Position numbers and translations under genes: made by a program. A stretch of 64,000 nucleotides of DNA. Origin: Escherichia coli. Lineage in GTDB: Bacteria > Pseudomonadota > Gammaproteobacteria > Enterobacterales > Enterobacteriaceae. The notes under the pieces were generated by a model, which saw nothing but the letters and a program-made list of their open reading frames with translations, was not told where the DNA came from and made no database searches. Position 1 is the stretch's first letter; the number at the start of each line of letters is the position of its first letter. This document shows, in pieces, positions 5,658 through 60,871 of the stretch. The DNA lies in assembly GCF_013122565.1 (NCBI RefSeq), contig NZ_CP053258.1; one strand, written 5' to 3'.

Positions 5658-5888
5658 TTATGAAGCATCATTTTTACTGACTGGTGTTAACTTTGCTATC
5701 ATATAAACTCTGTTCTTAAAAAACGCGCCCAGAATTTTATATGATTTTCCTTGTTTTTCTGCCTGTAAAGAAATTTCTTTTTCAGTGCTGTCAATGGTTG
5801 AACCGACGGCAGTAATCGTTTTGGCGACGCTACTGAAAGATAATAAAGACAGTGTCATCACAACAATTAAAGAACAGATAGTATTCAT
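5658..5888 (-). CDS. Small secreted protein, DUF1471/YhcN-like (signal peptide + ~55-aa mature domain)
   Basis: ORF track 5658..5930; internal Met gives MNTICSLIVVMTLSLLSFSSVA (signal-peptide-like) then ...AEKQGKSYKILGAFFKNRVYMIAKL, matching the pattern of YahO/YjfY-type small periplasmic stress proteins. Start chosen at the internal Met; the printed sequence and ORF track appear to disagree by 1 nt here. Confidence 0.4.
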   Translation of the reverse strand: MNTICSLIVVMTLSLLSFSSVAKTITAVGSTIDSTEKEISLQAEKQGKSYKILGAFFKNRVYMIAKLTPVSKNDAS

Positions 5889-6103
5889 GCTAATTCTCCT
5901 GACAATTGAGAGGATGAGTTTTATATACATAGATATTAAACATGAGTCATATTTACTCCAAGAGAAAATACCCCTTCTGTAATTAAACCTTCATCTCCTT
6001 CGGAATGAGTAATGCATAATATAATGCATCTTGCTATGCAAAACAGTGGATATAAATTTTCCTCCCGACCTATTTAATAAAACGTGAATGTAAAAGTTAT
6101 TCT

Positions 6104-6841: not shown

Positions 6842-6924
6842 ATGTGTTCGGAGAGAGAATAGAACTTTATGATTGGTTCCAGTATCCTGCTTTCAATGTA
6901 CTCAGTGGTTAGCGGCATTAAACA

Positions 6925-7824
6925 ATGAAAATCGATCTTAATCTTTTACCCATTTTTATCGCGGTAGCAGAAGAGAGTAATTTTAGTAAAGCCGCCGCAC
7001 GACTGGGCGTTACCCGTTCAGCGGTCAGTCAGGGAATAAGACGCCTTGAAGATGCATTCGGGACAATGCTTGTAATGCGGACCACGCGCTCAGTTAATTT
7101 GACGGAAGCGGGAGAACGGCTGCATAAATCGTTGTCATTACCTTTATCCGGTATTGAGGCAACGTTCGAAGAGATGGTTTCTGACCATGTGCCACGCGGA
7201 CTTCTCAGAATCGCGGTGACGTCGATAGCAGAAGAATTTCTTTCAGGTCCGCTAATCGCTTCGTTTGCAGCTGCCAATCCAGCCGTTACGCTTGATATTG
7301 TTGTAACGGATGAGGAATTCGATATCGTGGCCGCAGGTTACGATGCTGGCGTAAGGCTCGGAGAGGTCATTGAAAAAGACATGATTGCTGTGCCCATTAC
7401 CGGCAGGCAGCGTGAAATGGTCGTTGCCTCTCCCTCCTATCTCGCAGCCAACAGCACTCCTGTTCATCCGCGTGAACTTGTGAATCATAAGTGTATCGGC
7501 TGGCGTCAGTCCCCGGAGGTTGCGCCTTATCGCTGGCCATTTGAAGAAAACGGGAGAGCTTTCGACCTTGCGATTGAACCGCAGATTACGACTAATGATC
7601 TGCGTCTGATGTTGCGGCTGGCTCTTGCCGGTGGAGGAATAACAATTGCCACTCAGGAAACTTTCAGGCCGTATATTGAAAGCGGTAAGCTTGTATCGCT
7701 GCTTGATGACTTTCTTCCACAATTTCCGGGCTTCTATCTGTATTTCCCACAGCGTCGCAATATTGCACCAAAGCTCCGCGCCCTGATTGACCACGTCAAA
7801 GAATGGCGGCAGCAATTGACTTAA
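6925..7824 (+). CDS. LysR-family transcriptional regulator, divergent from the SDR gene
   Basis: N-terminal HTH (LNLLPIFIAVAEESNFSKAAARLGVTRSAVSQGIRRLE), 299 aa, LysR substrate-binding-like C-terminus; divergent 83-bp intergenic region with the SDR gene. Confidence 0.9.
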   Translation: MKIDLNLLPIFIAVAEESNFSKAAARLGVTRSAVSQGIRRLEDAFGTMLVMRTTRSVNLTEAGERLHKSLSLPLSGIEATFEEMVSDHVPRGLLRIAVTSIAEEFLSGPLIASFAAANPAVTLDIVVTDEEFDIVAAGYDAGVRLGEVIEKDMIAVPITGRQREMVVASPSYLAANSTPVHPRELVNHKCIGWRQSPEVAPYRWPFEENGRAFDLAIEPQITTNDLRLMLRLALAGGGITIATQETFRPYIESGKLVSLLDDFLPQFPGFYLYFPQRRNIAPKLRALIDHVKEWRQQLT

Positions 7825-8389
7825 ATGTCTGCACCTGCACGGCCTGATGTCAGAACAATATTTTGATGAATTGCCTACACCAGCTAGCCGCAGCACATTC
7901 TTGCATACGACATGTCTGCGGTTTACTTTTCACGCTCAAACCTTATGGTAAAGCACAATAATGATCCCCAGGGCTATATAAATGTTTTGTAATTAGCTCT
8001 TAAGACGAACTTTTCAGACTAACTTCTTTATTCATCCATAATGAAGACTGTATTAGGAAGTTCTCTAAAAACATGAATAACCACTGTCTTACAATGAATT
8101 TAGTTTACAGAACATTCTTATTGAGAAAAAACAACACTGTACACACCCAATAATATAGAAATGTAAATTTAAGTTTATTAATCTTTTGAATTATAATCAT
8201 AACTTTCTGTTAACCATTAGAATATCAATAGATTATAATCACTGAACACACATTTTTATAATTGCTATTCCCACACTCAAAATGCGCATCCCAATATCTT
8301 ATTTGACACTTTGTTGTTTGCTACTAGAGTTAATTGGGTGCTGACAAGGCACATGTTATTTACAAATTGGAAATCAGAGGAGAAATGAT

Positions 8390-8572
8390 ATGACCGAACA
8401 TCGTGGCGGTGCAGGTAATTTCGCTGAAGATCGACAAAAAGCTTCTGACGCAGGTCGTAAAGGTGGCCAACAAAGTGGTGGTAATTTTAAAAACGATCCA
8501 CAAAGAGCATCAGAAGCAGGGAAAAAAGGTGGTCAGAATAGCCATGGCGGCGGTCGTAAATCTGACTCTTAA
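8390..8572 (+). CDS. yciG: YciG/YmdF-like KGG-repeat general stress protein
   Basis: 60 aa, repeated GG..K...A.EAG.KGGQ motifs (RKGGQQSGGNF, KKGGQNSHGGGRK); preceded by 560 bp of AT-rich non-coding DNA; RBS GGAGAA. Confidence 0.8.
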   Translation: MTEHRGGAGNFAEDRQKASDAGRKGGQQSGGNFKNDPQRASEAGKKGGQNSHGGGRKSDS

Positions 8573-8645
8573 TTTTTCATCTCCCTAAATTCGTGAATAA
8601 CTGCAGCTAACTGCGAGCCTACGGGCTCGCAGGGACAACTCTGGA

Positions 8646-9152
8646 GTGATTATGCAAATTAAATCTGTTGAAGATATCTTCATCCATTTATTATCTGACA
8701 CATATAGTGCTGAGAAACAACTAACCAAGGCACTATCTAAACTTACTCGCTCCGCATATAGTGATAAATTAACCGCTGCTTTTCAGTCACATCTTGATGA
8801 GACACATGGTCAAATTGAACGCATCGACCAGGTTGTTGATTCTGAAGATGGTATTAAACTAAAAAGAATTAAGTGCGCCGCAATGGAAGGCCTTATTGAA
8901 GAGGCGAATGAGGTAATTGAAAGCACTGACAAAAATGAAATACGTGATGCTGCGTTGATTGCAGCAGCACAAAAAGTAGAACACTATGAAATTGCCAGTT
9001 ATGGCACCCTGGTAACACTTGCTGAGCAATTAGGATTTAAAAAAGCGGCTCAACTCCTGAAAGAAACTCTGGAAGAGGAAAAAGCTACTGATGTCAAATT
9101 AACAGACCTGGCATTTAATAATGTTAATAAAAAAGCTCAGGATAACTCCTGA
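8646..9152 (+). CDS. yciF: YciF-like DUF892 ferritin-like stress protein
   Basis: 168 aa; paralogous to the next gene; operon order yciG-yciF-yciE as in the known yciGFE(-katN) stress operon. Confidence 0.8.
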   Translation: MIMQIKSVEDIFIHLLSDTYSAEKQLTKALSKLTRSAYSDKLTAAFQSHLDETHGQIERIDQVVDSEDGIKLKRIKCAAMEGLIEEANEVIESTDKNEIRDAALIAAAQKVEHYEIASYGTLVTLAEQLGFKKAAQLLKETLEEEKATDVKLTDLAFNNVNKKAQDNS

Positions 9153-9186
9153 ACTATAGACTTCACTTTTTTAGGAGAAATATATT

Positions 9187-9693
9187 ATGAATAGCATTGA
9201 ACATTATCATGACTGGCTTCGTGACGCACACGCAATGGAGAAACAAGCGGAATCAATGTTGGAGTCTATGGCCAGCAGGATAGAAAACTATCCTGAGTTA
9301 CGTTCCAGAATTGAGCAGCACATTAGCGAAACAAAGAACCAGCTTTCACAGCTTGAAAGCATACTTGATCGTAATAATATTTCTCGCTCTGTCATTAAAG
9401 ACTCTATGAGTAAAATGGCCGCGTTTGGGCAATCTATTGGTGGAATTTTTCCATCTGATGAAATTGTCAAAGGTTCGATCAGTGGCTATGTTTTTGAACA
9501 ATTTGAAATTGCGTGCTACACATCTCTTCTCGCAGCAGCCAAAAATGCGGGTGATACAGCTTCAGTACCAATTATTGAAGCAATTCTTAATGAAGAAAAA
9601 CAAATGGCTGAATGGCTTCTTAACCATATTCCAGACACCACTGAGCAGTTTATGGTCAGATCTGAAATTGATGGCGCTGAAGCAAAAAAATAA
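9187..9693 (+). CDS. yciE: YciE-like DUF892 ferritin-like stress protein
   Basis: 168 aa, MNSIEHYHDWLRDAHAMEKQAESMLESMASRIENYPEL...; tight spacing to flanking genes. Confidence 0.8.
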   Translation: MNSIEHYHDWLRDAHAMEKQAESMLESMASRIENYPELRSRIEQHISETKNQLSQLESILDRNNISRSVIKDSMSKMAAFGQSIGGIFPSDEIVKGSISGYVFEQFEIACYTSLLAAAKNAGDTASVPIIEAILNEEKQMAEWLLNHIPDTTEQFMVRSEIDGAEAKK

Positions 9694-48497: not shown

Positions 48498-50711
48498 TTA
48501 TTCAGAAACGTCCGGGGTAGGTAACGGGGCAATATCATCCGCAGTCATGGCTGTGCCGCCATCCGGATTCATATCAATGCCACTGCCAATGAGTTGCATA
48601 ACATCGCTGGTGTGCAGTAAAAGTTGTTTTCCGCAAAACTCAATCGAGCCATCCTTGTGTAATACAAGCGCTGCATTGCCGCAACGAAGGGTAAATTGAT
48701 CGCCAACATCCAGACGATATGTCGTTCCGACATTGATGGTTTGAGCCAGTTTGACGGAAAGACCATCATTTTTTGTGATGGTGGCATTACGGTCTTCTCC
48801 CACGCTGATGGTTTCATTTTTGACAATGGTTTTTATGCGATCGACCATGACCGTGTGGGTTTCATTGTTTTTTACCGTGGTATTGAGGTCTTTTTCCGCA
48901 TGGAACTTCACCTCTTCTGCCCCCGTTTTATCGTCAAAGCGCAGCATGTTTCCGTTGGTCGGCCCGCCATACAGCGAGTGGCTGAATATCCCGCTCTGCG
49001 AGGCCATACCCGGCAGTCCCCACGGCGGCATGGTGTCCTGGTTATAGGTGCGCCCTACAATGATCGGTAAATCCGGGTCGCCGTTTTTGAAATCCACCAG
49101 CACTTCCTGACCGATGCGCGGGATCTGGATCATGCCGAATCCTTTCCCTGCCCACGGATAGCTGACGCGGATCCAGCAGGAGCTGTTTTCGTCATTATTA
49201 CCGTAACGATCCCAGCCAAACTGCACCTTCACCCGTCCATATTTGTCCGTCCAGATTTCCTGCCCCGCCGGGCCGGTGACGATGGCGCTCTGCGGGCCTT
49301 TGGTGTGGGGTTTGCTCAGGGTTCGCTGTGGGCGGTAAACTTCGCTGGTTGGGTGCAGTTCAAACGTGGTGACATAGGTAAAATGCTGATCCTGGCCGCT
49401 GTGCTGCGCATTGTCCCGTAAAAACAGCGTGGTCTGTACCAGCAGGTATTCCTGATTAATTTCTGCCGTCGGGTGATTCATCAATGTAAAGGTGTACCCG
49501 GTCATGAGGGTACGGATATGACCGGCCCCATGTGCCCGGCTGCCTGGGCTACGCTGCGCTTCCATACGAATACGCGTCAACATCTCGCCTTCGCCCGTAG
49601 TGAAGTAATCACCAGGCCATTCGTAATGCTCGTATTCAGCATGACCGGTATCACGCGGACTGGCCACGGTACTTTTAAGCAGCGAACGAGGCTTCATAAA
49701 ATCAAAATCGTCCATCACCCACTTTCCAGTACGCAGCCTCTCACTGGCCGTAATGGTGTGAATAAATTCCTTATCCAGTTTCAGCCCTTCCTGGTGCCAC
49801 TCCACCAGTGGCGAGTCAGGGCACGCTTTATGACCATTGATGGCATCCGCCAGCACCAGCGTGTGGCTGTTCTCGCTGTGCTCAAACCACCAGTAAATTC
49901 CCCACTCCTGCATCAGGCGCTGGATGAAATCAAAATCCGTTTCACCGTACTGTACCTGCCAGGCACGAGGTGGATAATTTTCCACCAGCCGTTTTTCCAC
50001 CGGAAAGGAATATTCATCCAGTACTTCATCGAGAATATCCACCACGGTTTTATTCTGGAACGCTTTGTAGTCGCTGGTGTGGGTCAGCAGTTTCAGCCAC
50101 GGTTCAATGCGTAATTCATACGTTACCGAGCGGCCCTCATGGCCCACCACCCGCGCCGCTGTCACCAGCCCGCTGATATGCCGTTTGCCGCCGCCGTCCA
50201 GTTCGATATTGACGCACAGATCTTTGCCCACCATGGGCTGAAGCGGCAGGTTAGCAGCGGGGGAAACGTACCCCAGGTTCAGGGCGTCCGGCGTTTTAAG
50301 CTGTACTGTGTAGGAAAACAGATTCCCAAGCCCTTCCGAACCATTCATGCCTGCAAACAAAAGCATCTGCGGCGGCACCGCACTACCACTTACTGTGACG
50401 TTATGCGCCCCCGGACCACCTGCAGCAAGCGACGCCGCCGCATCCTGAACTGCACCAGCCATATCCGATATCCCTGCTGCGGCGGCTGCGGCTTGCGCAG
50501 CAGCTACTGCGGCTTTAACCAGACCTGACGGTTCCGGCAACGCACCAAACAGGTCCGCCGCTGCCTGTTCTACCATCTGCTCGGCTGCATCAGCTACATC
50601 GGTTGCGGCTGAACCAGGGCTTATACCACCACTTTCGCCAGCTATTGGTGGTGTGGTGATGACGGGTCCACCGTTTCCAACTGGTTTATTACCCGTAGAT
50701 ACAAAACTCAT
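48498..50711 (-). CDS. vgrG: T6SS spike protein VgrG (737 aa as the longest ORF, includes a ~100-aa Ala/Gly-rich N-terminal extension; true start uncertain)
   Basis: gp27/gp5-like VgrG body ([25 protein letters not shown]..., C-terminal ...[19 protein letters not shown]...); N-terminal [22 protein letters not shown]...[10 protein letters not shown] segment precedes the conserved start of the VgrG fold. Confidence 0.85.
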
Positions 50712-50735: not shown

Positions 50736-51122
50736 TTAAAATCTAGCCCCTGGTGGCCAAAAAATATAAGTAATAACTCTCCATTGCCCGTCTTTATAAT
50801 GAAACCAACATGTCAGATTCAAATCCCCCTGCAAATTCCAGAACATTTCCTTAATAGGAACATCTTGAAATTCAGGATCTGTTATGCGATAAGTTTGATT
50901 CAAGCCGATATAATACTCACCAACAAATTTATATCGTGGCCTCACGAACTCATGAGCAGGCGGCCCATATTTTTTCATAAAAAAGATGTCATTACTTCCA
51001 TCATGTATATCATTTTCTTCATAATATTTGGTGGATTGAGCAACTGCAGAAGGCTTGAAAACATTCACTGTAGTTATGTAAGTTATTGAAAGAAAAATCA
51101 CTATAATGCAGAAAAATTTCAT
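50736..51122 (-). CDS. Predicted periplasmic immunity protein 1 (signal peptide; paralogue of 52819..53181)
   Basis: 128 aa, MKFFCIIVIFLSITYITTVNVF... signal peptide; shares ...EFQDVPIKEMFWN..DLNLTCW.HYK.GQW.VI...WPPG..F with the paralogue; 4-nt overlap with upstream effector gene. Confidence 0.6.
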   Translation of the reverse strand: MKFFCIIVIFLSITYITTVNVFKPSAVAQSTKYYEENDIHDGSNDIFFMKKYGPPAHEFVRPRYKFVGEYYIGLNQTYRITDPEFQDVPIKEMFWNLQGDLNLTCWFHYKDGQWRVITYIFWPPGARF

Positions 51123-51820
51123 TTGGTTACATTCAATAAAGTAAATTTAGTTTCAGGCATTATGACATTCAACGTTATAGTTGCGTTTTTAAGGTATCGT
51201 TCCCGAAGCTCCATTCCCACATTCATCAACCCACTAATATCTCCAACATACGGAGACGAAGAATCATAATCATCATCTAAGTAACCAAGTACATGTCCGG
51301 CTTCATGAGGTATATTTACTTGCAACGTATTGTTACAGTTAATACATTTCGCTACTTTTTCCAGGTCCGCTGAATCAACATGAACCGTACTGTTTTTAAA
51401 ATCAACATATGTTCTTAAATCAGCACCAGGCAAAACCTTTGTTGCAATAACCAACCAGTCTTCATTCTGAGATGCAGAAATTATTCTTACATCAAAAGGC
51501 AAAGCTTTACCCTGAAATTTTTTAGCGAACTCAGATTCACCGGAAACAGAATAAGTTATTTTCCCATTCCATGCCTGCTGAACAGATAAATATATCGCTC
51601 GCATAAAAATAGCTTTTTCCCATATAGTCCAGTCATCTGTAACGGTATTATCCTTATACCACTCATACTTCCATCTTATCACAGCCGTAATCGAACCAGT
51701 ATTTTGATTTAATAAATACGTCCTCCTACCATCCTTATGTATAATGATATCGCCATCAATATTTGTTTTTTCATAGTATTCGGCCAGCAAACTATTCTCA
51801 TCATATTTAAGCTTGGTCAT
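51119..51820 (-). CDS. Candidate T6SS effector 1: HExxH zinc-metallopeptidase-like protein (233 aa)
   Basis: HEAGHVLGY motif plus conserved block LMNVGMELRERYL shared with the 268-aa paralogue; AT-rich; no signal peptide; followed by a signal-peptide protein. Confidence 0.6.
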   Translation of the reverse strand: MTKLKYDENSLLAEYYEKTNIDGDIIIHKDGRRTYLLNQNTGSITAVIRWKYEWYKDNTVTDDWTIWEKAIFMRAIYLSVQQAWNGKITYSVSGESEFAKKFQGKALPFDVRIISASQNEDWLVIATKVLPGADLRTYVDFKNSTVHVDSADLEKVAKCINCNNTLQVNIPHEAGHVLGYLDDDYDSSSPYVGDISGLMNVGMELRERYLKNATITLNVIMPETKFTLLNVTK

Positions 51821-52032
51821 TTTACTCTCATTAAATAATAATTATTTGTATCGAAAATATTATTTTATATATTACGAGTATTGCCCCTTCAGCCGCAGCG
51901 CATCCACATACCGTCCTTCACTGCAGGGCAAGATTACGAAAGCCCGCCCCCCGCAAGGACTGACGCGAGGTAGTTTCTGTCCATGGCTGCTTTTCTCATC
52001 TTACGTCTTAACCCTGCCTTGGTTTCGCCGTA

Positions 52033-52794
52033 CTACACCTGCCAGGCGCGGGGGGGATAATTTTCCACCAGCCGTTTTTCCACCGGAAAGGAATATTCAT
52101 CCAGTACTTCATCGAGAATATCCACCACGGTTTTATTCTGGAATGCTTTGTAGTCGCTGGTATGGGTCAGCAGCTTCAGCCATGGCTCAATGCGTAATTC
52201 ATACGTTACCGAACGGCCCTCATGGCCGACCACCCTCGCCGCCGTCACCAGCCCGCTGATATACCGTTTTCCGCCACCGTCCAGTTCAATGTTGACGCAC
52301 AGGTCTTTGCCCACCATGGGCTGAAGCGGCAGGTTAGCAGCGGGGGAAACGTACCCCAGGTTCAGGGCGTCCGGCGTTTTAAGCTGTACTGTGTAGGAAA
52401 ACAGATTCCCAAGCCCTTCCGAACCATTCATGCCTGCAAACAAAAGCAGCTGCGGCGGCACCGCACTACCACTTACTGTGACGTTATGCGCCCCCGGTCC
52501 ACCGGCAGCAATCGACGCCGCCGCATCCTGAACTGCACCAGCCATATCCGATATCCCTGCTGCGGCGGCTGCGGCTTGCGCAGCAGCTACTGCGGCTTTA
52601 ACCAGACCTGACGGTTCCGGCAACGCACCAAACAGGTCCGCCGCTGCCTGTTCTACCATCTGCTCGGCTGCATCAGCGACATCGGTTGCGGCTGAACCAG
52701 GGCTTATACCACCACTTTCGCCAGCTATTGGTGGTGTGGTGATGACGGGTCCACCGTTTCCAACTGGTTTATTACCCGTAGATACAAAACTCAT
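52033..52794 (-). pseudogene. vgrG: vgrG 5' fragment (N-terminal ~255 codons duplicated; body replaced)
   Basis: Near-identical to the first ~780 bp of vgrG at 49935-50711, including the Ala-rich N-terminal segment; homology breaks near 52017-52036. Confidence 0.75.
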
Positions 52795-52818: not shown

Positions 52819-53181
52819 TTAAAATTTGGATCCTGGCGGCCAATAAACTCGGGATATAACTATCCATTTACCATTTTTATAATGAAGCCAACATGTTAAA
52901 TTTAGATCTTTATTAACATTCCAAAACATCTCCTTAATAGGAACATCTTTAAATTCAGGATTATTTGAAGGGTAAGTCCGTTCTATGCCACCATAATAAA
53001 TACCTACAAAATCATGCCTTGGGTTTATAAAATAATGTTCAGGAGAACCATATTTTCTCACTAGTGAATCTTCATCATCCCCCCACTGAACATCTTTGTT
53101 ATGCATCTCACTGGCAAAAATATCTAGAGTTACAAGCAATATCAATAACGTAAAAAATAGAGCGATTTTCTTCTGGATCAT
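52819..53181 (-). CDS. Predicted periplasmic immunity protein 2 (signal peptide; paralogue of 50736..51122)
   Basis: 120 aa, MIQKKIALFFTLLILLVTLDIFA signal peptide; conserved C-terminal block with paralogue. Confidence 0.6.
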   Translation of the reverse strand: MIQKKIALFFTLLILLVTLDIFASEMHNKDVQWGDDEDSLVRKYGSPEHYFINPRHDFVGIYYGGIERTYPSNNPEFKDVPIKEMFWNVNKDLNLTCWLHYKNGKWIVISRVYWPPGSKF

Positions 53182-53984
53182 TTTATTACACTCGCAACAG
53201 AAAACGTAGTTAAGGGATATACTAAATTCAAGTCAATACAGACACCTTCCAGGTAGCGTTCCCGAAGTTCCATCCCAACATTCATTAACGCGGCAGTATC
53301 TATTTTATATTTAGACACAGGCTTACCAAACTTATCAAGTTCATATTCATCCTCCAGATAACGAATCATATGTCCAATTTCATGAACTATATTTACCTGA
53401 TAAAAACCACATATTGACTGATTCTCTGGAGCACATTTTTCTGATAACGAAGTATCTTTAAAATAAAAATGAGCAAACCGATTTTTCCAGTTAACATAAG
53501 GCCTGCCATCATCATTACCAGGAACGGTTCTTAATACGTCTACATTCCAGTGTTCTTTTTGATGGACCGGAATCATATTTATGCTGAAAGGCAATCTTTT
53601 ACTCTTGAATTTCTCAGCAAAATCAGAGTCCCCTGAGACAGATAAAAATATCTTATCATTCCATCCATAACAGATTGCAGAAAATGATTCATATATAAAA
53701 CTAACTTCATCCAGGTATGTCCAGTTATCTCCTACATTGTTCTGATTCACCCAGTTAAATTTCCATCTCATTAATAATGCAATGTCGCCTGTATCACTAT
53801 TCAGGATATATTCGCCATGTTCTGTATTCATCCTGAGACACTTCCCATCTTCTACGGTGTCAGGGCAAAACTTATGCATGAGTTTAATAAAGAATTCATG
53901 CGATAGATTTATTTTACTCTCTCCAACAACACCATCTACATGTGTTGTGAGCGAACCAGATTTATTCCCTGAAGAAGAACTCAT
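53178..53984 (-). CDS. Candidate T6SS effector 2: HExxH zinc-metallopeptidase-like protein (268 aa)
   Basis: HEIGHMIRY motif and LMNVGMELRERYL block; first ~10 codons and the 25 bp upstream resemble the vgrG 5' end (MSSSSGNKSGS vs [11 protein letters not shown]). Confidence 0.6.
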   Translation of the reverse strand: MSSSSGNKSGSLTTHVDGVVGESKINLSHEFFIKLMHKFCPDTVEDGKCLRMNTEHGEYILNSDTGDIALLMRWKFNWVNQNNVGDNWTYLDEVSFIYESFSAICYGWNDKIFLSVSGDSDFAEKFKSKRLPFSINMIPVHQKEHWNVDVLRTVPGNDDGRPYVNWKNRFAHFYFKDTSLSEKCAPENQSICGFYQVNIVHEIGHMIRYLEDEYELDKFGKPVSKYKIDTAALMNVGMELRERYLEGVCIDLNLVYPLTTFSVASVIK

Positions 53985-54311
53985 GCTATTGACTCCTTTA
54001 ATACTGGGGTAGAGATTTAGCCCACGACAGTCGTATTCCTGTTTTTTACATCCAATAAAATAGAATATTAATAAATTAGGATAATATTTTTACTTTACTC
54101 ACTCTACTTTCAATCTGAGTTCTCCGTACAATCGGGTTCTGACATTGAACCTTCCGACTGAAATACACCACTCCCCCCTCTATCCAGTCGCAACGCATCC
54201 ACATACCGCCCCCTTGCTGTTCTGCTGCCAGAACCATCCATGCCCCTGCTGCGCCTGCGTTAACATTTTTGCTAGCCAGCACGGTCACGGCAGGCAATTC
54301 CATGACATGTA

Positions 54312-54773
54312 CTACTCATCCGTACAACCCAGCCCCCGGCGCTGAACCACTTCACTGGCAAACGTTGCTCCGGTTTTTTTCATTATTCCCTGCTGGATTT
54401 TTTGTAACTCCGGGTATACAACCCGCTCACATTCATTTATTTCCCATATGTCACCCGTCTTAGGACTAACCGAAAACAACCCTAAATAGTCTGTTGCTCC
54501 AGCAGTCGGCGTATCATAGCCAAGACTAAAATCATAATATCCGGGATGAGGCGCATTGCCCTGACCATCCTGTAAATCTCCATCAATAAAAATCCCTTCC
54601 AGCGATAAATTATACTTTTGGTGCCTGAGTACAATAATAAGCAGTTTTTCCGCCTGTGCTTTCGTCATCCCTTCGCGGTTTATATCTGATAAATTAAATT
54701 CAGACGTATTCCCCTGAACGTAGCAAACCGCAGAGGCAAGAAGAAAAAAAACAAATATTATTTTACGGGGCAC
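54312..54773 (-). CDS. Predicted periplasmic immunity protein for the glucosaminidase-like effector (signal peptide)
   Basis: 153 aa, MPRKIIFVFFLLASAVCYVQG signal peptide; overlaps the upstream effector stop. Confidence 0.55.
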   Translation of the reverse strand: MPRKIIFVFFLLASAVCYVQGNTSEFNLSDINREGMTKAQAEKLLIIVLRHQKYNLSLEGIFIDGDLQDGQGNAPHPGYYDFSLGYDTPTAGATDYLGLFSVSPKTGDIWEINECERVVYPELQKIQQGIMKKTGATFASEVVQRRGLGCTDE

Positions 54774-55228
54774 GCCATTCTCCTTCCGACCATAATAATA
54801 ATGTCAGCAGTTTTTTTGGCATAATTATCTGTTCCGCCTGTGCTACTATCTCCAGAATTAAATCCGGCCTTTACCAGAGCATCACAGAAAGCCAAAGCAT
54901 CCTTTATGTCTCTGGCTGCATTACCATATTTTATTGCAAAAGATCGTGCACAGATTGAAAAAGACGGAAAAGTAGCCACCCGGGTTTTCTTGTTACCGTG
55001 CGGACGGATTTCGCCTGACTGAAATGATGCAGGGGCATGCAGGGAGAAATAGTTGTTATATTCCCTGGCAATACGGCCTGTACCATACTGGCTCTCCGCC
55101 GCGGCAAGCCCCAGAATATTTTCCACAGGAACATTAAGTTGTTTAGCGATTAATTCACATTCTTTCAGATGCTGCTGAACAAACCTTACTGCATTAACAT
55201 CATTACAGGCTTTGTCATAAGACCCCAT
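54758..55228 (-). CDS. Candidate T6SS glycoside-hydrolase effector (GH73 / FlgJ-type glucosaminidase-like, Tge-like)
   Basis: 156 aa; ILGLAAAESQYGTGRIAREYNNYFSLHA matches the GH73 catalytic-Glu region pattern (A..ES.wG.......NN.FG); no signal peptide; followed by a signal-peptide protein. Confidence 0.55.
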   Translation of the reverse strand: MGSYDKACNDVNAVRFVQQHLKECELIAKQLNVPVENILGLAAAESQYGTGRIAREYNNYFSLHAPASFQSGEIRPHGNKKTRVATFPSFSICARSFAIKYGNAARDIKDALAFCDALVKAGFNSGDSSTGGTDNYAKKTADIIIMVGRRMACPVK

Positions 55229-55255
55229 GATCCACTACTCCTTATCTGATTATTT

Positions 55256-56029
55256 TTAATGCTGCCGGATATCCAGCCGCAACGCATCCACATACCGCCC
55301 CTCGCTGTTCTGCTGCCAGAACCAGCCCTGCCCCTGCTGCGCCTGCGTCAGCATTTTGTCCGGCCAGCCCGGCCACGGCAGGTGGCGCACACCGGGCAGT
55401 TCCACTACCGGCACGTCCGGCAGGCCGGTGAGTTCCCGGCTACGCTGCGGTACACGTCGTAAGCCGCGTAGCCACTGCGCCCAGCGCGGCCCCGGTCGCC
55501 ACATCGCCCAGAGCTGGTCTGTCTGCTCCGCCAGTCGACCGCAGCGTTCTGTCTGTGGTGAGACATGAGCTGCCGTCAACTGCGCCAGCCAGTACAGCCA
55601 GCCCTTTGTGTCATCCAGGCTCTCTTCCAGCCATTCCCGCCCGGCACGCTGGTAAATCACCAGTGGCCACGACCTGCCCGTACTGTCACGTGAGGCGGTC
55701 AGCACCCCGGTCAGCCACTCATCGCGCCCGCCAATGGGGAGAAATCCCGGCGATAATACAAAGCTCCACGGTAGCGGATGGTGTTCCGGCACCTCCGTTT
55801 TCTCGCGCGGTGACAGGTGCATCCAACCGTCATTTACTCCGGTTTTCGCAGCATCCGTTCCTTCCGGCAGAACAATATGCCGCCCCTGTCCCAGCCACGT
55901 CTGCTGGTTCAGCCACGCCTGCCACACCTGCCCATCGTTCGCGCTCACCCGCCAGCGCACGTAGTCCCGCTGATCCGGCAGTCTGCCGAACATCGCCGGA
56001 ACCGATACCACCGCAGCCCGGCGCATCAC
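55256..56029 (-). CDS. tagF: T6SS-associated protein TagF-like (DUF2094)
   Basis: 257 aa directly downstream of and overlapping tssM; 3'-end sequence recurs as ~30-100 bp remnants at 54196-54300 and 51888-51912. Confidence 0.6.
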   Translation of the reverse strand: MMRRAAVVSVPAMFGRLPDQRDYVRWRVSANDGQVWQAWLNQQTWLGQGRHIVLPEGTDAAKTGVNDGWMHLSPREKTEVPEHHPLPWSFVLSPGFLPIGGRDEWLTGVLTASRDSTGRSWPLVIYQRAGREWLEESLDDTKGWLYWLAQLTAAHVSPQTERCGRLAEQTDQLWAMWRPGPRWAQWLRGLRRVPQRSRELTGLPDVPVVELPGVRHLPWPGWPDKMLTQAQQGQGWFWQQNSEGRYVDALRLDIRQH

Positions 56030-59000
56030 AGCGCTCGCTCCGGGCAGGCGAAGCGTTGCAGTAGCCCACGGTTCACCGGGTCAAAATCCCGTCCTGCGGT
56101 GATTTCCAGCACCACCCGCCGCCCGTCAAAGCTATATTCAACCTGCTGTGTTCCCCGTACCGCCGTCTCCTGCGCGTTACCCGCATCCAGCAGGTGAAAC
56201 AGCGCCCACGGTCCGTTAGTCAGCAGCGTCGAGGTGTCCTGGCGGATGCGCGGGCTGGCGGTGATTTCCGCCATTGAGCCGTTGCGCGGCCCCGGCCAGT
56301 TCACTTTCAGCGGTCTGACCGGGCCGTGAGCGTAACGCAGCACCTGACCGTCGATATCAATCACCAGTTCAGTGATTGCAGGGTCCATATCCACGACGCG
56401 GACCTGCATCGCCCAGGAAAACTTTTTCCCGCCTTCACCGTTAAAAAAAACGCTGCGGATCTGTTTCGCCTCCTGAAACGGCGTCAGGTCCGGCCCCTGT
56501 AAGGTCATGTTGCCTTCGGTCGGTTTGTAGCGCCACGGGTTGCTGGCGGTGTCCGCCAGCGGGGCCAGTTGCTTCGTCCAGAACGCATCCAGCACACCGC
56601 CGCTGGCAAAGATATGGTTAAAATCGTCCGCGCTGACCTCCTGCGGGCTGTCGGTAAAGGGGTAGCGCCCGTCAATAGCATCACGGCACTCATCGCCAAT
56701 CACCGCTTCCATCTGCGCGTTCAGCACTTCACCGGTGCCGGCGTTGATTTTGCGCGTTCCCTGCTGCGTGAGATCCAGCAAAATATTTTTCAGCGGTGCG
56801 GGCAGTTTTGCCGCCTCCAGTTGCAGTTTATCCGCCGCCGAAATACGGCCAGGTAATGTGCTCGCTGCCAGCGCGCTGTCGGCGATGGTGAGCTGGGTGT
56901 AATATTCATTGAGCATTGTCAGCAGCGAATTTAACTGCGGCGCGCCACCAGTCTGCCCGCTGTCTGTCCGCCCGGAAACCACTTCCCGCAAGGCGGCGAA
57001 ACGGTCATCCACCAGTGATTTCTCCAGCCGCTCTTCCGGGTGGATGTCCTGTAACAGCTTTGCCGTCTGCCCCGCTTTTCCCACATTGCCGGAGAGCCGG
57101 TCCTGCGCACGCTGGGCCATCTGCTTTTGTCTGGCCTGCGCATCCAGCGGCGGCACCAGCGTGGTCTGCTCCACCACCGCTTTACTCAGGCGCATCAGCG
57201 GGGAATCCGGCGAGGCCAGGGTACGCAGCACCTGAAGGTCATACGCCAGCCCGGGACTGCCGTCTTCCCCGGCACTGTTGATGCTGTGAATACTTGCCAG
57301 AAAATCCTGCCAGCGGCGGGCATATTCAGCCAGGTACAGGCGGCGTACCTCACGGGTAACCGGGAGTTCCTGCCCCGGCAACTGGCTCATCACAATATCC
57401 GTTGTTTTTTTTTGCGCGTTTTCCCGGCCCATCACCCAGGCATCGTCCGCTGATGCGGCTGCGACAAACTCCGACAGCCGTTTGTCGAACAGTTCCCGGT
57501 AGCCTTCGCGAGTGAAGATGCCGGGCACGCCCCTATCCAGCGGCGCGCCATCCGTGCGGACAAAAACCGTTCCCGCATCCGCGCCCACAGCGCGAACCAG
57601 CGAAAACTCCTGCGGTGCTTCGCTCTCCATGGAAGCCAGGGCTCGAGTGTAGATACGCTCGGTGCTGGTATGGCCGTCAAGGAAGGCTCGCGCCTGGCGG
57701 ATCAGCCCCTCATCTTTTTCCCAGGGCGAATGCACCACGCGGCTGCCGTCAAACAGGGCATCGATATGCTCCAGCACGGCGGCGCGACCGCCGAACTCCG
57801 CCACGCTGTCGCGGTTGTCCAGGTCGTTCAGCACCCAGGCGTGGATCTCCGCCGCGTTGTATTTATCCTCGTGGTCCTTATCGAGGTTCAGCAACAGATA
57901 AACATGCAGGGCGTCATAGGCGGCTTTGCTGTCCTGACGCGCAATCGCATCCGAAAGCACGTATTCCATGCGTTTCACCAGCGGTGGCAGCAGTAACTGG
58001 TCCAGCAGGCGGTCATACAGGGATGCGACGCTCTCCATCACCGGCGGAACGCTGTAAAGACCATAACGCCAGGCCAGCGGCGGCGAGTCCGGGTCCAGTC
58101 CCGGCCAGGCAGAGAGCGCCCGTGCCTGGTTCAGCAGGGCCGGAACAGGCTGCATAGCAGGTTTTCCGGTATAGGCTTTGACATCACCATCCAGTTGGGT
58201 CGTCCGGCTGGCGATTTCATTCAGATAACCGCTGTTACCCTGCTGGCTGCCCTGCATTCCCTGCCACAACCAGAAAGCCAGCGCCAGTACCAGCAGATGC
58301 CCGCCAGTGCGCAGCAGGCGGTAACGCCAGGCCCACTGAAGGTTCGGCTCCACCAGGTGCGCTTCGCGGAAGATAAACTGCGTCAGTAGATCGTGCAGGA
58401 AATAGCTGCGGTTGCCGTCCGGCAGGGTATGGGATGGGGAATCAGCCTTCCCTTTGATAGCACGGACAAAACGCTGCCAGATGCCCGTCTTGTCAGCCAC
58501 GGCGTCTGCCTGCGCCTGCGCGGCGCTGGTAAAAAATACGCCGCGCAGGGTGTTGTTAAGCTGGGTGGCGTCAAATTTTGAATCGAGGAAAATCTGCTCA
58601 ATGGCTTCCAGCAGCGGCGCACCCAGCGCGGCAAATTCACGCGGGAAGCGATAGAGCCGCTGGCGGCTTTTAAGGTCGTACTCTTCCTGCAACCGGGTAT
58701 CCAGCCCCTGATCCAGCCGCAGGGTCAGGTTTGCCAGTTCCTGGCTACAGAGCGCATGCAGCGACTGCGGATCGCTGGCGTGACGCCTGCGGCTGTATGG
58801 CAGAGTAAAGCCCCAGACCTGGGCGCGCAGGTGGCTGGTCAGCCCGTGGAAATACTCCGTAAAGCCCGGCAGCAGATCCATCTTGGTGACAACCAGATAG
58901 ACCGGAAAACGAATACCCAGCGTCTCCCGCAGTTCCGCCAGCCGCGCACGCAGGGCCGCACAGGCAGCCAGCCGTTCCGCCGGGGACTGCGCAGTCAGAT

Positions 59001-59892
59001 CCGCCACGTTCAGCGTCAGGATCACGCCGTTGAGCGGTGCGCCGGGGCGGTGTTTACGCAGCAGTCCCAGAAACCCGTGCCACTCCCCGGCGTTGCGCTG
59101 GGTCGCGCTGATTTCGCCACCGTCATCGTGACGGGCATAGCGCCCGGCGGTGTCAATAAGCACTGCTTCGTTGGTAAACCACCAGTCGCAATGCAGCGTT
59201 CCGCCGCCCGGCACGGTGAGGATATGCGCGGTTTGCTCCATCTGCTCCGCCAGCGGAAACTGCAATCCGGTGTTGAGCAGTGCTGTGGTTTTACCGTCGC
59301 CGGGGCTACCGATAACCATGAACCAAGGCAGTTCGTACAGAAAACGTTTTCCTTCCAGTACGTTACGCCAGCCCGGCAGGTCTACGCGCAGCTGTTTCAG
59401 TTGCCGAATAGCGCGAGTGACAATATGGCTGACGGTGCGTAAGTCGGCTTTAATTTCCCCGGCCACCGGTACGTCTTCCCCGCGCGGATGCAGGAAACGG
59501 CGCAGCAGTTGTTCGTCCAGACGCAGCGCCCGCCACAGCCGGTACAGGCCATACAGCGCATAAGACAGAAGGATCAGGCCGATAAGCGTCAGACGCAGCC
59601 ACAGCGGCGCAAATGGATGAACATCACCGAAAGCCAGCAACGGTGAGACAAAGCCGATAACCAGGCACAGAACCGTAACGCCAATGATGCTCATAGACCA
59701 GTTAACCAGCCACAGTGCGAGGAACATCAGTAACAGAACGATGGTGACTAACCGACTTCCCACGGACGCGAGTGGATGCAGGGTGTCAAACGCGACCAGC
59801 GGCCCAATAAACCAGACCAGCAACGCCAGCATTACCAGGCCAACAATGGCCAGCGCGCGGCGGGAAAACAGCATACTGAGAAATTTTTGCAT
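56026..59892 (-). CDS. tssM: T6SS membrane core protein TssM (IcmF-like)
   Basis: 1288 aa; N-terminal TM helices, Walker A GSPGDGKTT, large periplasmic C-terminal region; GC-rich. Confidence 0.9.
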   Translation of the reverse strand: MQKFLSMLFSRRALAIVGLVMLALLVWFIGPLVAFDTLHPLASVGSRLVTIVLLLMFLALWLVNWSMSIIGVTVLCLVIGFVSPLLAFGDVHPFAPLWLRLTLIGLILLSYALYGLYRLWRALRLDEQLLRRFLHPRGEDVPVAGEIKADLRTVSHIVTRAIRQLKQLRVDLPGWRNVLEGKRFLYELPWFMVIGSPGDGKTTALLNTGLQFPLAEQMEQTAHILTVPGGGTLHCDWWFTNEAVLIDTAGRYARHDDGGEISATQRNAGEWHGFLGLLRKHRPGAPLNGVILTLNVADLTAQSPAERLAACAALRARLAELRETLGIRFPVYLVVTKMDLLPGFTEYFHGLTSHLRAQVWGFTLPYSRRRHASDPQSLHALCSQELANLTLRLDQGLDTRLQEEYDLKSRQRLYRFPREFAALGAPLLEAIEQIFLDSKFDATQLNNTLRGVFFTSAAQAQADAVADKTGIWQRFVRAIKGKADSPSHTLPDGNRSYFLHDLLTQFIFREAHLVEPNLQWAWRYRLLRTGGHLLVLALAFWLWQGMQGSQQGNSGYLNEIASRTTQLDGDVKAYTGKPAMQPVPALLNQARALSAWPGLDPDSPPLAWRYGLYSVPPVMESVASLYDRLLDQLLLPPLVKRMEYVLSDAIARQDSKAAYDALHVYLLLNLDKDHEDKYNAAEIHAWVLNDLDNRDSVAEFGGRAAVLEHIDALFDGSRVVHSPWEKDEGLIRQARAFLDGHTSTERIYTRALASMESEAPQEFSLVRAVGADAGTVFVRTDGAPLDRGVPGIFTREGYRELFDKRLSEFVAAASADDAWVMGRENAQKKTTDIVMSQLPGQELPVTREVRRLYLAEYARRWQDFLASIHSINSAGEDGSPGLAYDLQVLRTLASPDSPLMRLSKAVVEQTTLVPPLDAQARQKQMAQRAQDRLSGNVGKAGQTAKLLQDIHPEERLEKSLVDDRFAALREVVSGRTDSGQTGGAPQLNSLLTMLNEYYTQLTIADSALAASTLPGRISAADKLQLEAAKLPAPLKNILLDLTQQGTRKINAGTGEVLNAQMEAVIGDECRDAIDGRYPFTDSPQEVSADDFNHIFASGGVLDAFWTKQLAPLADTASNPWRYKPTEGNMTLQGPDLTPFQEAKQIRSVFFNGEGGKKFSWAMQVRVVDMDPAITELVIDIDGQVLRYAHGPVRPLKVNWPGPRNGSMAEITASPRIRQDTSTLLTNGPWALFHLLDAGNAQETAVRGTQQVEYSFDGRRVVLEITAGRDFDPVNRGLLQRFACPERAL

Positions 59893-60179
59893 TATTGTTC
59901 AGAACTCCATGCGATAATCAGTAATAGCAAAATGCCGCAAGCTGAAAAAATCCTTCCAGTACGGGCTACTGAAAGAAAATAAAGAGCAATCTGAACAATT
60001 ATCAAAATAAAATAAATCAACATTTTGATTATTTCTCTGTTCCCATTTCCCTGAGGCAACGTTGTCATTGAAGGATCCATATCCTGCATCCATTGATACT
60101 CATTCCCGGAAAAAAGCATGATGATGATCAGACCCATAATGAATAACAACCATCCTGATATCTGAATTATTCTTCTCAC
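59892..60179 (-). CDS. Small polytopic membrane protein (95 aa), candidate immunity/accessory protein
   Basis: Two to three hydrophobic helices (WLLFIMGLIIIMLF, IYFILIIVQIALYFL, ACGILLLLIIAW); AT-rich; stop overlaps the tssM start. Confidence 0.5.
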   Translation of the reverse strand: MRRIIQISGWLLFIMGLIIIMLFSGNEYQWMQDMDPSMTTLPQGNGNREIIKMLIYFILIIVQIALYFLSVARTGRIFSACGILLLLIIAWSSEQ

Positions 60180-60187
60180 GAAGACTC

Positions 60188-60871
60188 CTAATGGGCGATG
60201 AGTAAATTAGAGAAATGCAACCAGTTGTTGACAATAAAATTGCCATAGCTGGTATCTTCCTTTATTTTCTCCAGAGTAAGCGACATACCCCGGTTATAAC
60301 GGGCACCAATAATTCTTATCTGCTCTTTCGTCAGGTGTGGTAAGGAGGACTGAAATTCATCTCTTTCAGCTAATTTATAAATATGTCTGGCCACAAGTTG
60401 AATATTAAAAATATCATGCTGGAGGCAATTTGCCAGTTCACGCAATTGAGAGGTATCCATTTTTGACTCATCAAGCCCAAGCGTTCTGGCTGCGGTTCGC
60501 AATTGCATACTCACTGCACCAAAAGATGTTTTTTCTGGTCTCGAAGTTATTGTGATATGTTCATCAATCCACTCAGGCCCACTCCAGTCAATAGTCCGAG
60601 CATCAAATGCCAGCATATCTACAATACTGGGATCCCCCCCGACTTCTATCCAACACACACCTGCCAGTAAAGGTGCTGGCAAATTATATGTATTGGCAGC
60701 CGACGTTATCAGAAGATGGTTATGTTTTACCCAGCCATCTTTGAAATAACGCCCAAACGGTACACCACCGCCCCATTTTTTTGGCGCTAATTTCCAGAAA
60801 AGAAATTCGGTCACGCCCCATACCGGTGAATGATTCGATGCATTGCAGTCCAGATTATTCATTTTTCTCAC
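60188..60871 (-). CDS. Unknown 227-aa protein inserted between tssL and tssM (candidate effector or peptidoglycan-remodelling accessory protein)
   Basis: AT-rich (~40% GC) in a GC-rich operon; contains LLAGVCWIEVGG and FGAVSMQLRTA, loosely reminiscent of lytic transglycosylase / Cys-hydrolase motifs; no confident family assignment. Confidence 0.5.
   Translation of the reverse strand: MRKMNNLDCNASNHSPVWGVTEFLFWKLAPKKWGGGVPFGRYFKDGWVKHNHLLITSAANTYNLPAPLLAGVCWIEVGGDPSIVDMLAFDARTIDWSGPEWIDEHITITSRPEKTSFGAVSMQLRTAARTLGLDESKMDTSQLRELANCLQHDIFNIQLVARHIYKLAERDEFQSSLPHLTKEQIRIIGARYNRGMSLTLEKIKEDTSYGNFIVNNWLHFSNLLIAH

Follow-up and report, generated by a model that had tools for sequence, protein, structure and literature searches.

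The stretch of DNA analysed here, hereafter the window, comprises 64,000 nucleotides of an Escherichia coli chromosome (GCF_013122565.1 / NZ_CP053258.1). The segment is at least 99.6% identical in three complete genomes (VE-T9, LHM10-1 and CP52E), where it belongs to a type VI secretion system (T6SS) island adjoining yafV. Next to the T6SS accessory gene tagF the window carries two overlapping genes on the minus strand, a predicted effector gene and a predicted immunity gene, which are called tge2 and tgi2 throughout for reasons given below (Table 1). Their open reading frames share 16 nucleotides and the Shine-Dalgarno sequence of tgi2 lies inside the 3' end of tge2, meaning that the two genes are translationally coupled. 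An earlier note on this DNA, made by reading the letters without database searches, had described the pair as a small GH73-like glucosaminidase cargo effector followed by a signal-peptide immunity protein; the coordinates, the overlap and the motifs that it gave agree with our direct reading of the sequence.

The product of tge2 aligned without gaps over residues 6-153 to chain A of PDB entry 4KT3, with 82 of 148 positions identical (55%, E value 9e-49). A Pfam scan, the profile search by which the earlier note had proposed to check its GH73 assignment, returned the Glucosaminidase/GH73 family PF01832 (E 1.2e-9, residues 27-144, model positions 7-118 of 123). It was the sole significant Pfam family of the protein, SLT_2 giving a weak match (E 0.018). 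When databases were searched with Tge2, 59 homologues were recovered from Salmonella, Enterobacter, E. coli, Pseudomonas and metagenomes, and PF01832 was present in every full-length one. A profile made from 32 homologues reached 4KT3_A with an E value of 3e-77 as well as the GH73 domain of Sphingomonas FlgJ (2ZYC, E 8.5e-6).

Looking at the two motifs that had first suggested a GH73 active site, we found AAAESQYG at residues 42-49 and NNYF at residues 58-61. In the alignment of the 32 homologues, E36, E45, S46, G49, N59 and F61 were invariant, as were C8 and C153, while N58 and Y60 were kept in at least 90% of the sequences. E36 is peculiar to the Tge2 family. The NNYF motif aligns with the 'YNLFNI' stretch of FlgJ and the 'NNFFGI' stretch of LytB, and the E45 column aligns with the residue that is an alanine in 3K3T, an FlgJ structure titled 'E185A mutant'. 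Because the profile puts E45 on this alanine, E45 is the predicted counterpart of Glu185, the experimentally probed catalytic general acid of FlgJ. The two invariant cysteines are located near the two termini of Tge2 and may form a disulfide in the periplasm only.

The fold points in the same direction. An AlphaFold2 model of Tge2 was obtained with a mean predicted local distance difference test score of 89.6 and a predicted template modelling (TM) score of 0.85. With this model Foldseek placed 4KT3_A first (E 4.7e-15, TM scores 0.85/0.94, root-mean-square deviation 2.6), under the title 'Structure of a type VI secretion system effector-immunity complex from Pseudomonas protegens'. The further matches were GH73 proteins only, that is, FlgJ from two species, Listeria Auto, Thermotoga TM0633, Enterococcus AtlA and pneumococcal LytB. 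Far down the list, and not significant (E above 0.3), came lysozymes of the goose type and lytic transglycosylases. The N-terminal 30 residues of Tge2 have a 9-residue Kyte-Doolittle maximum of merely 0.26 and hence no signal peptide, and the protein is not fused to a PAAR, VgrG or Rhs domain. Since both a hydrophobic N-terminus and such a fusion are absent, Tge2 is predicted to be a stand-alone cargo effector.

The product of tgi2 matched the other chain of the same crystal structure. Residues 29-153 align with 4KT3_B (E 1.4e-44, 70 of 125 positions identical, 56%), and the Pfam family T6SS_Tgi2PP (PF21576) covers residues 35-139 (E 1.9e-17). Tgi2 starts MPRKIIFVFFLLASAVCYVQG; its N-terminus reads MPRK, then IIFVFFLLASAV, then CYVQG, with an n-region and an h-region, and its 9-residue Kyte-Doolittle maximum reaches 3.44 at residues 5-13. 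A heuristic reading gave a signal peptide of about residues 1-21, with candidate cleavage sites after ASA (before V) and after VQG (before N). As the N-terminus is hydrophobic and the homology with mature Tgi2 starts at residue 29, the protein fits export to the periplasm by the Sec pathway. We also considered that Tgi2 could be a lipoprotein and rejected it: no [LVI][ASTVI][GAS]C lipobox was found even with a relaxed pattern, the residues before Cys17 being S-A-V. Because a canonical lipobox is absent, Tgi2 is probably soluble in the periplasm. Residues C115 and C150 are conserved with P. protegens Tgi2 in the alignment, and a periplasmic disulfide between them is plausible.

Because a single solved complex has homologues of both proteins as its two chains, we assign tge2-tgi2 to the T6SS Tge2/Tgi2 effector-immunity family as an E. 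coli member, with a probability of about 0.9. The basis of this assignment is homology, fold, motif conservation, gene arrangement and the signal peptide of Tgi2. Tge2 thus has the homology and the fold of its family, its small size, its lack of a Sec signal and its adjacency to a T6SS, and the neighbouring gene belongs to the Tgi2 family. The pair is already known, the family having been defined and crystallised in 2013 and being named in Pfam and at NCBI; RefSeq labels the products of another E. coli allele 'glucosaminidase domain-containing protein' and 'Tgi2PP family T6SS immunity protein'. The family naming goes back to Whitney et al. 2013 (cited in PMC10469887, PMC4832377 and PMC11114119), whose Tge2/Tgi2 structure is 4KT3, a 1:1 complex (Table 1 of PMC4832377). 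P. protegens Tge2 is reported to be a T6SS-delivered antibacterial effector neutralised by Tgi2 (PMC4832377, PMC11114119). In Salmonella enterica the same slot is variable region 2 (VR2) of Salmonella pathogenicity island 6 (SPI-6), described as 'downstream of tssM', and Tge2 is listed there (PMC10469887, PMC11669294, PMC12288458).

Altogether, the earlier reading was right but not new. A GH73-like protein is what the Pfam family, the reach of the family profile to FlgJ structures and the GH73-only fold matches indicate, and the catalytic-Glu motif holds with an invariant E45 on the residue mutated in FlgJ. The small cargo effector was borne out by a length of 156 residues without signal peptide or carrier fusion, and the overlapping immunity gene by PF21576 and 4KT3_B. 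The proposed place next to tagF inside a T6SS cluster is confirmed by TIGR03373, the RefSeq name of TagF and the flanking genes. The lack of a GH73/lysozyme-like fold, which the note had named as the finding that would refute it, was not observed, the model matching 4KT3_A and then GH73 enzymes. A GH73 T6SS effector could therefore be recognised without tools, from a short catalytic motif and the gene context.

In the mechanism that we propose, Tge2 would be made in the cytoplasm without a signal peptide and loaded by the surrounding T6SS as a small cargo, most likely within the Hcp tube in view of its size of 17 kDa, and it would then be injected into the periplasm of Gram-negative neighbours. 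In that compartment, its GH73-type site would cut the glycan backbone of peptidoglycan with Glu45 as the general acid and the aromatic NNYF motif assisting; the bond predicted from the family is the β-1,4 linkage from N-acetylglucosamine (GlcNAc) to N-acetylmuramic acid (MurNAc), GlcNAc-β-1,4-MurNAc. Cutting would weaken the wall, so that the target would be lysed or halted. Tgi2, exported by its Sec signal peptide to the periplasm of the producer, would bind Tge2 arriving from sister cells 1:1 and block its active site; occlusion of the Tge2 active site by Tgi2 is reportedly what the 2013 abstract of Whitney and co-workers describes. The two genes form an accessory cassette of the variable region that follows tssM-tagF. 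For the Tge2 family as a whole, the β-N-acetylglucosaminidase specificity is a prediction only (PMC10469887).

Several observations weigh against this reading and its mechanism. The second FlgJ-type carboxylate segment, 'TVEYEN', sits in a 6-residue gap of the Tge2 profile (HMMER), in a region that is weakly aligned, and no invariant Asp or Glu was found in the hairpin (residues 66-90, with strands 72-74 and 84-86 in the model) across the 32-sequence alignment; where the window protein has E73, relatives have Q, R, K or A. It is on this β-hairpin that we take the second catalytic carboxylate of GH73 to lie (FlgJ Glu224, Auto Glu156), a residue that varies within GH73. Because the second FlgJ-type carboxylate is not conserved in the Tge2 family, the catalytic mechanism and the cleaved bond remain predictions. 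The FlgJ score of Tge2 is only 20.2 bits for a cut-off of 193 (TIGR02541) and covers profile positions 147-211 only; FlgJ proper was rejected as the identity of this 156-residue protein, which has no rod-binding domain, and no flagellar genes are found near tge2. NCBIfam has no specific model for Tge2 or Tgi2. The remainder of the T6SS (tssA-H, hcp) falls beyond the window edges, and tssL and tssK are pseudogenes in VE-T9, meaning that the machine is not functional in every carrier. Finally, secretion, toxicity and neutralisation in E. coli are extrapolated from a Pseudomonas homologue that is 55% identical.

The lack of conservation of the second carboxylate also bears on what Tge2 would cut. 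The same effector-immunity pair could carry a muramidase or lytic transglycosylase cleaving MurNAc-GlcNAc, in line with one review that groups Tge1-3 as 'glycoside hydrolase (muramidase) effectors' (PMC4832377), with the weak SLT_2 match and with the g-type lysozymes and lytic transglycosylases low in the fold list. However, these SLT and lysozyme matches have E values above 0.3 in the fold search, every significant fold or profile match is to GH73 and PF01832 stands alone among significant Pfam families, so that we consider this activity unlikely. An even less probable possibility is that the genes are intact within a silent or decaying cassette whose T6SS is inactive or unexpressed, in which case only tgi2 would matter, as a defence against competitors armed with Tge2. 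The frameshift in tssL and the internal stop in tssK of VE-T9, together with the partial view of the T6SS in the window, speak for it, but tssK, tssL, tssM, tagF and vgrG of the window are full-length and, apart from tagF, above curated cut-offs, and both open reading frames of the pair retain strong Shine-Dalgarno sites and all family-invariant residues.

The position of tge2 directly after tssM-tagF, genes for the membrane complex and an accessory protein, could also suggest a housekeeping hydrolase of the MltE/TagX type that opens the producer's own wall for T6SS assembly, with Tgi2 as its regulator or inhibitor; FlgJ, the nearest characterised enzyme outside the family, likewise serves the flagellar rod. 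We found this explanation extremely improbable and discarded such a cis-acting enzyme as a candidate. Without a signal peptide Tge2 cannot reach its own periplasm through Sec, and since some 102 E. coli genomes with this tagF and T6SS do without tge2, it is dispensable for assembly. The partner gene, moreover, encodes a member of an immunity family co-crystallised with its effector, and the low GC content and the allelic divergence of the pair (see below) are typical of toxin-immunity cassettes.

We then compared the pair with known systems. With P. protegens Pf-5 Tge2/Tgi2 (4KT3) it has in common the homology over the full mature length of both partners (55% and 56%), the fold (TM 0.85/0.94), the catalytic-Glu motif, the order of effector then immunity gene, the T6SS linkage and the C115/C150 pair of Tgi2. 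It differs in its host, an enterobacterium. Some Pseudomonas Tge2 entries have an N-terminal extension of about 20 residues that is missing from the E. coli effector. The P. protegens immunity protein was labelled 'putative lipoprotein' by its depositors (4KT3_B), whereas E. coli Tgi2 has no canonical lipobox; lipoprotein anchoring is not a defining feature of the Tgi2 family.

The closest relative of the locus is VR2 of SPI-6 in S. enterica, in which 7 of the 156 effector residues (96% identity) and 11 of the 153 residues of the immunity protein are different. Both loci have the order tssL-(224 residues)-(81 residues)-tssM-tagF-tge2-tgi2, the 16-nucleotide overlap and a tagF 3' repeat after tgi2, and the DNA is about 92% identical over 1.9 kb. 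The next genes differ, with a DUF2195 gene and a gene for a 170-residue protein in Salmonella, in contrast to pairs with an HExxH motif and a vgrG fragment in E. coli.

The comparison with the GH73 domain of FlgJ (Sphingomonas 2ZYC/3K3T, Salmonella 5DN4) extends to the lysozyme-like α/β fold (TM about 0.6-0.7) and to the general-acid Glu in A-x-x-E-[ST]-x-[WY]-G followed by NN[LY]F. In contrast to FlgJ, Tge2 has no N-terminal rod-binding domain, the hairpin that bears FlgJ Glu224 is 6 residues shorter, and the presumed target is the wall of other cells rather than that of the producer. P. aeruginosa Tge1 (Tse3) and Tgi1 (Tsi3) are similar in being a small T6SS cargo that cuts the glycan strand and a 1:1 periplasmic immunity protein (PMC4832377), but Tge1 belongs to another lysozyme-type family (a muramidase), the fold of its immunity protein is different, and no match between Tge1 and the window Tge2 was obtained in any of the sequence and profile searches made.

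As indicated in Table 1, tge2-tgi2 follows the genes of the T6SS membrane complex. Upstream of tagF lie intact tssM, tssL (438 residues) and tssK (447 residues), and downstream the cluster continues with vgrG and rhs; the TssM, TssL, TssK and VgrG proteins are all full-length and all exceed the curated NCBIfam cut-offs. The tagF product scored slightly below the cut-off of TIGR03373 (E 5e-10, 39.6 bits for a cut-off of 41.2). It is named 'TagF domain-containing protein' by RefSeq in a 99.7%-identical genome, and its Salmonella orthologue has the Pfam domain TagF_N. Scanning for promoters and terminators around tge2-tgi2 gave no signal exceeding the shuffled expectation, leaving an independent transcription unit without evidence. 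Given this result and the 27-nucleotide gap, tge2-tgi2 is probably co-transcribed with tssM-tagF. The GC content of the pair is 0.44, compared with 0.65 for tagF and 0.61 for tssM. In VE-T9, which is 99.7% identical (locus L001, 18870-21525), a frameshift affects tssL and an internal stop codon interrupts tssK; the window has intact copies of the two genes. Some carriers of the cassette seem to have a T6SS that is decaying.

Table 1. Coordinates of the tge2-tgi2 pair, of its neighbours and of the tagF 3' repeat copies (window positions unless a locus is named).
Feature	Coordinates	Strand	Description
vgrG, full	48498..50711	(-)	737 residues
Small signal-peptide protein, second HExxH pair	50736..51122	(-)	128 residues
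HExxH-motif protein, second pair	51119..51820	(-)	233 residues
vgrG 5' fragment	52033..52794	(-)	253 residues
Small signal-peptide protein, first HExxH pair	52819..53181	(-)	120 residues
HExxH-motif protein, first pair	53178..53984	(-)	268 residues
Downstream repeat copy	54181..54294		non-coding tagF 3' remnant; begins 17 nucleotides past the tgi2 stop; repeat search and alignments
tgi2	54312..54773	(-)	GTG start, 153 residues; predicted periplasmic immunity protein
Shine-Dalgarno of tgi2 (AAGGAG)	54780..54785	(-)	6 nucleotides before GTG, within the tge2 3' end; direct sequence reading
tge2	54758..55228	(-)	ATG start, 156 residues; predicted GH73-type T6SS cargo effector
Shine-Dalgarno of tge2 (AAGGAG)	55238..55243	(-)	9 nucleotides before ATG, within the 27-nucleotide tagF-tge2 spacer; direct sequence reading
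Upstream repeat copy	~55270..55382		3' end of intact tagF; repeat search and alignments
tagF	55256..56029	(-)	257 residues, T6SS accessory gene; stop codon 27 nucleotides ahead of tge2
tssM	56026..59892	(-)	1288 residues, T6SS membrane-complex subunit; TIGR03348 1058 bits, cut-off 388
Two small open reading frames between tssL and tssM	59892..60871	(-)	227 residues and 95 residues (hydrophobic)
Repeat copies, L002	7991..8101, 9086..9200		
Repeat copies, L004	5847..5959, 6922..7050		
Repeat copies, L006	4007..4133, 5846..5959, 6922..7050		

The tge2-tgi2 pair was present in 12 of 5426 complete E. coli genomes, as two alleles. About 102 other E. coli genomes carry the same tagF without it, for example CI5, where the next gene pair comes immediately after tagF. 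In contrast to these 12 genomes, Tge2 has been reported across 150-240 serotypes of Salmonella (PMC10469887). The proteins of the two E. coli alleles are 62% (effector) and 49% (immunity) identical, and their flanks are shared; the allele not found in the window is of the VCSW7 type. When window positions 54312-55228 were compared with positions 8169-9061 of the other allele (L002), the interiors showed only about 74% DNA identity versus 92-98% for the flanks, which are the end of tagF with the 5' end of tge2 on one side and the 3' end of tgi2 with a tagF remnant on the other. The window allele is about equally distant from the other E. coli allele and from Pseudomonas, and far closer to Salmonella (96%). 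With immunity proteins that are 49% identical, the two alleles may not cross-protect, which would allow killing within the species. In E. coli, Tge2/Tgi2 is thus a T6SS accessory cassette of rare occurrence, with two diverged alleles.

Direct repeats of the 3' end of tagF lie on either side of the cassette. The two window copies, one in intact tagF and the other in the remnant, are 87% identical; RefSeq annotates the downstream remnant as partial TagF or as a hypothetical pseudogene, and the diverged E. coli allele has this remnant too, with identical derived substitutions and an identical junction. Copies of about 115-130 bp occur after each effector/immunity cassette in both E. coli and Salmonella. 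The count is two for the window, for the other E. coli allele and for three of four Salmonella loci, and three for the two-cassette Salmonella locus (L006), where an additional pair encoding 279 and 89 residues lies between tagF and tge2 and one copy follows each unit. A single copy, inside a normal tagF, is found in the 'empty' E. coli loci. The final codons of tagF vary with the cassette that follows, each cassette bringing its own short C-terminal tail of TagF.

Since the copy number follows the number of cassettes and the tagF tail changes with the cassette, the variable region could be a repeat-bounded cassette array, in which homologous recombination inside the 3' end of tagF would add, remove and exchange modules. 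We put this forward tentatively, at somewhat less than even odds. The proposed exchange resembles the 3' tip displacement of rhs and cdiA loci. The variability of VR2 is reported as not explained by mobile elements (PMC10469887). A literature search found no description of cassettes bounded by tagF repeats, which does not prove novelty; this bracketing is the sole part of the locus that might be new, and modestly so. If true, the tagF 3' repeats offer a simple and testable mechanism for the exchange of toxin-immunity modules.

Downstream of the remnant there are two paralogous bicistronic pairs, in each of which the gene for a protein with an HExxH motif precedes that for a small protein with a signal peptide. 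Between the two pairs the HExxH proteins are 39% identical and the small proteins 44%. The 268-residue HExxH protein gave no Pfam family even at an E value of 10 and no NCBIfam match. These are probably T6SS effector/immunity pairs of the metallopeptidase type, and they may be equivalent to candidate effectors, Reprolysin_4 or M64, described from Salmonella VR2. The two pairs are separated by a 5' fragment of vgrG, which is 93% identical in DNA to the 5' part of the full gene over a 300-nucleotide repeat (49939-50238 and 52022-52321). As VE-T9 has one HExxH pair only and no vgrG fragment, recombination between the homologous 5' parts of vgrG apparently brought in the extra module.

Two further small open reading frames are located between tssL and tssM. 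The 227-residue product had no NCBIfam family, and the Salmonella counterpart of the 95-residue hydrophobic protein gave a weak DUF2645 match. They may be another uncharacterised effector/immunity pair; in E. coli VCSW7 the same slot is occupied by a Tlde1-domain effector and its partner.

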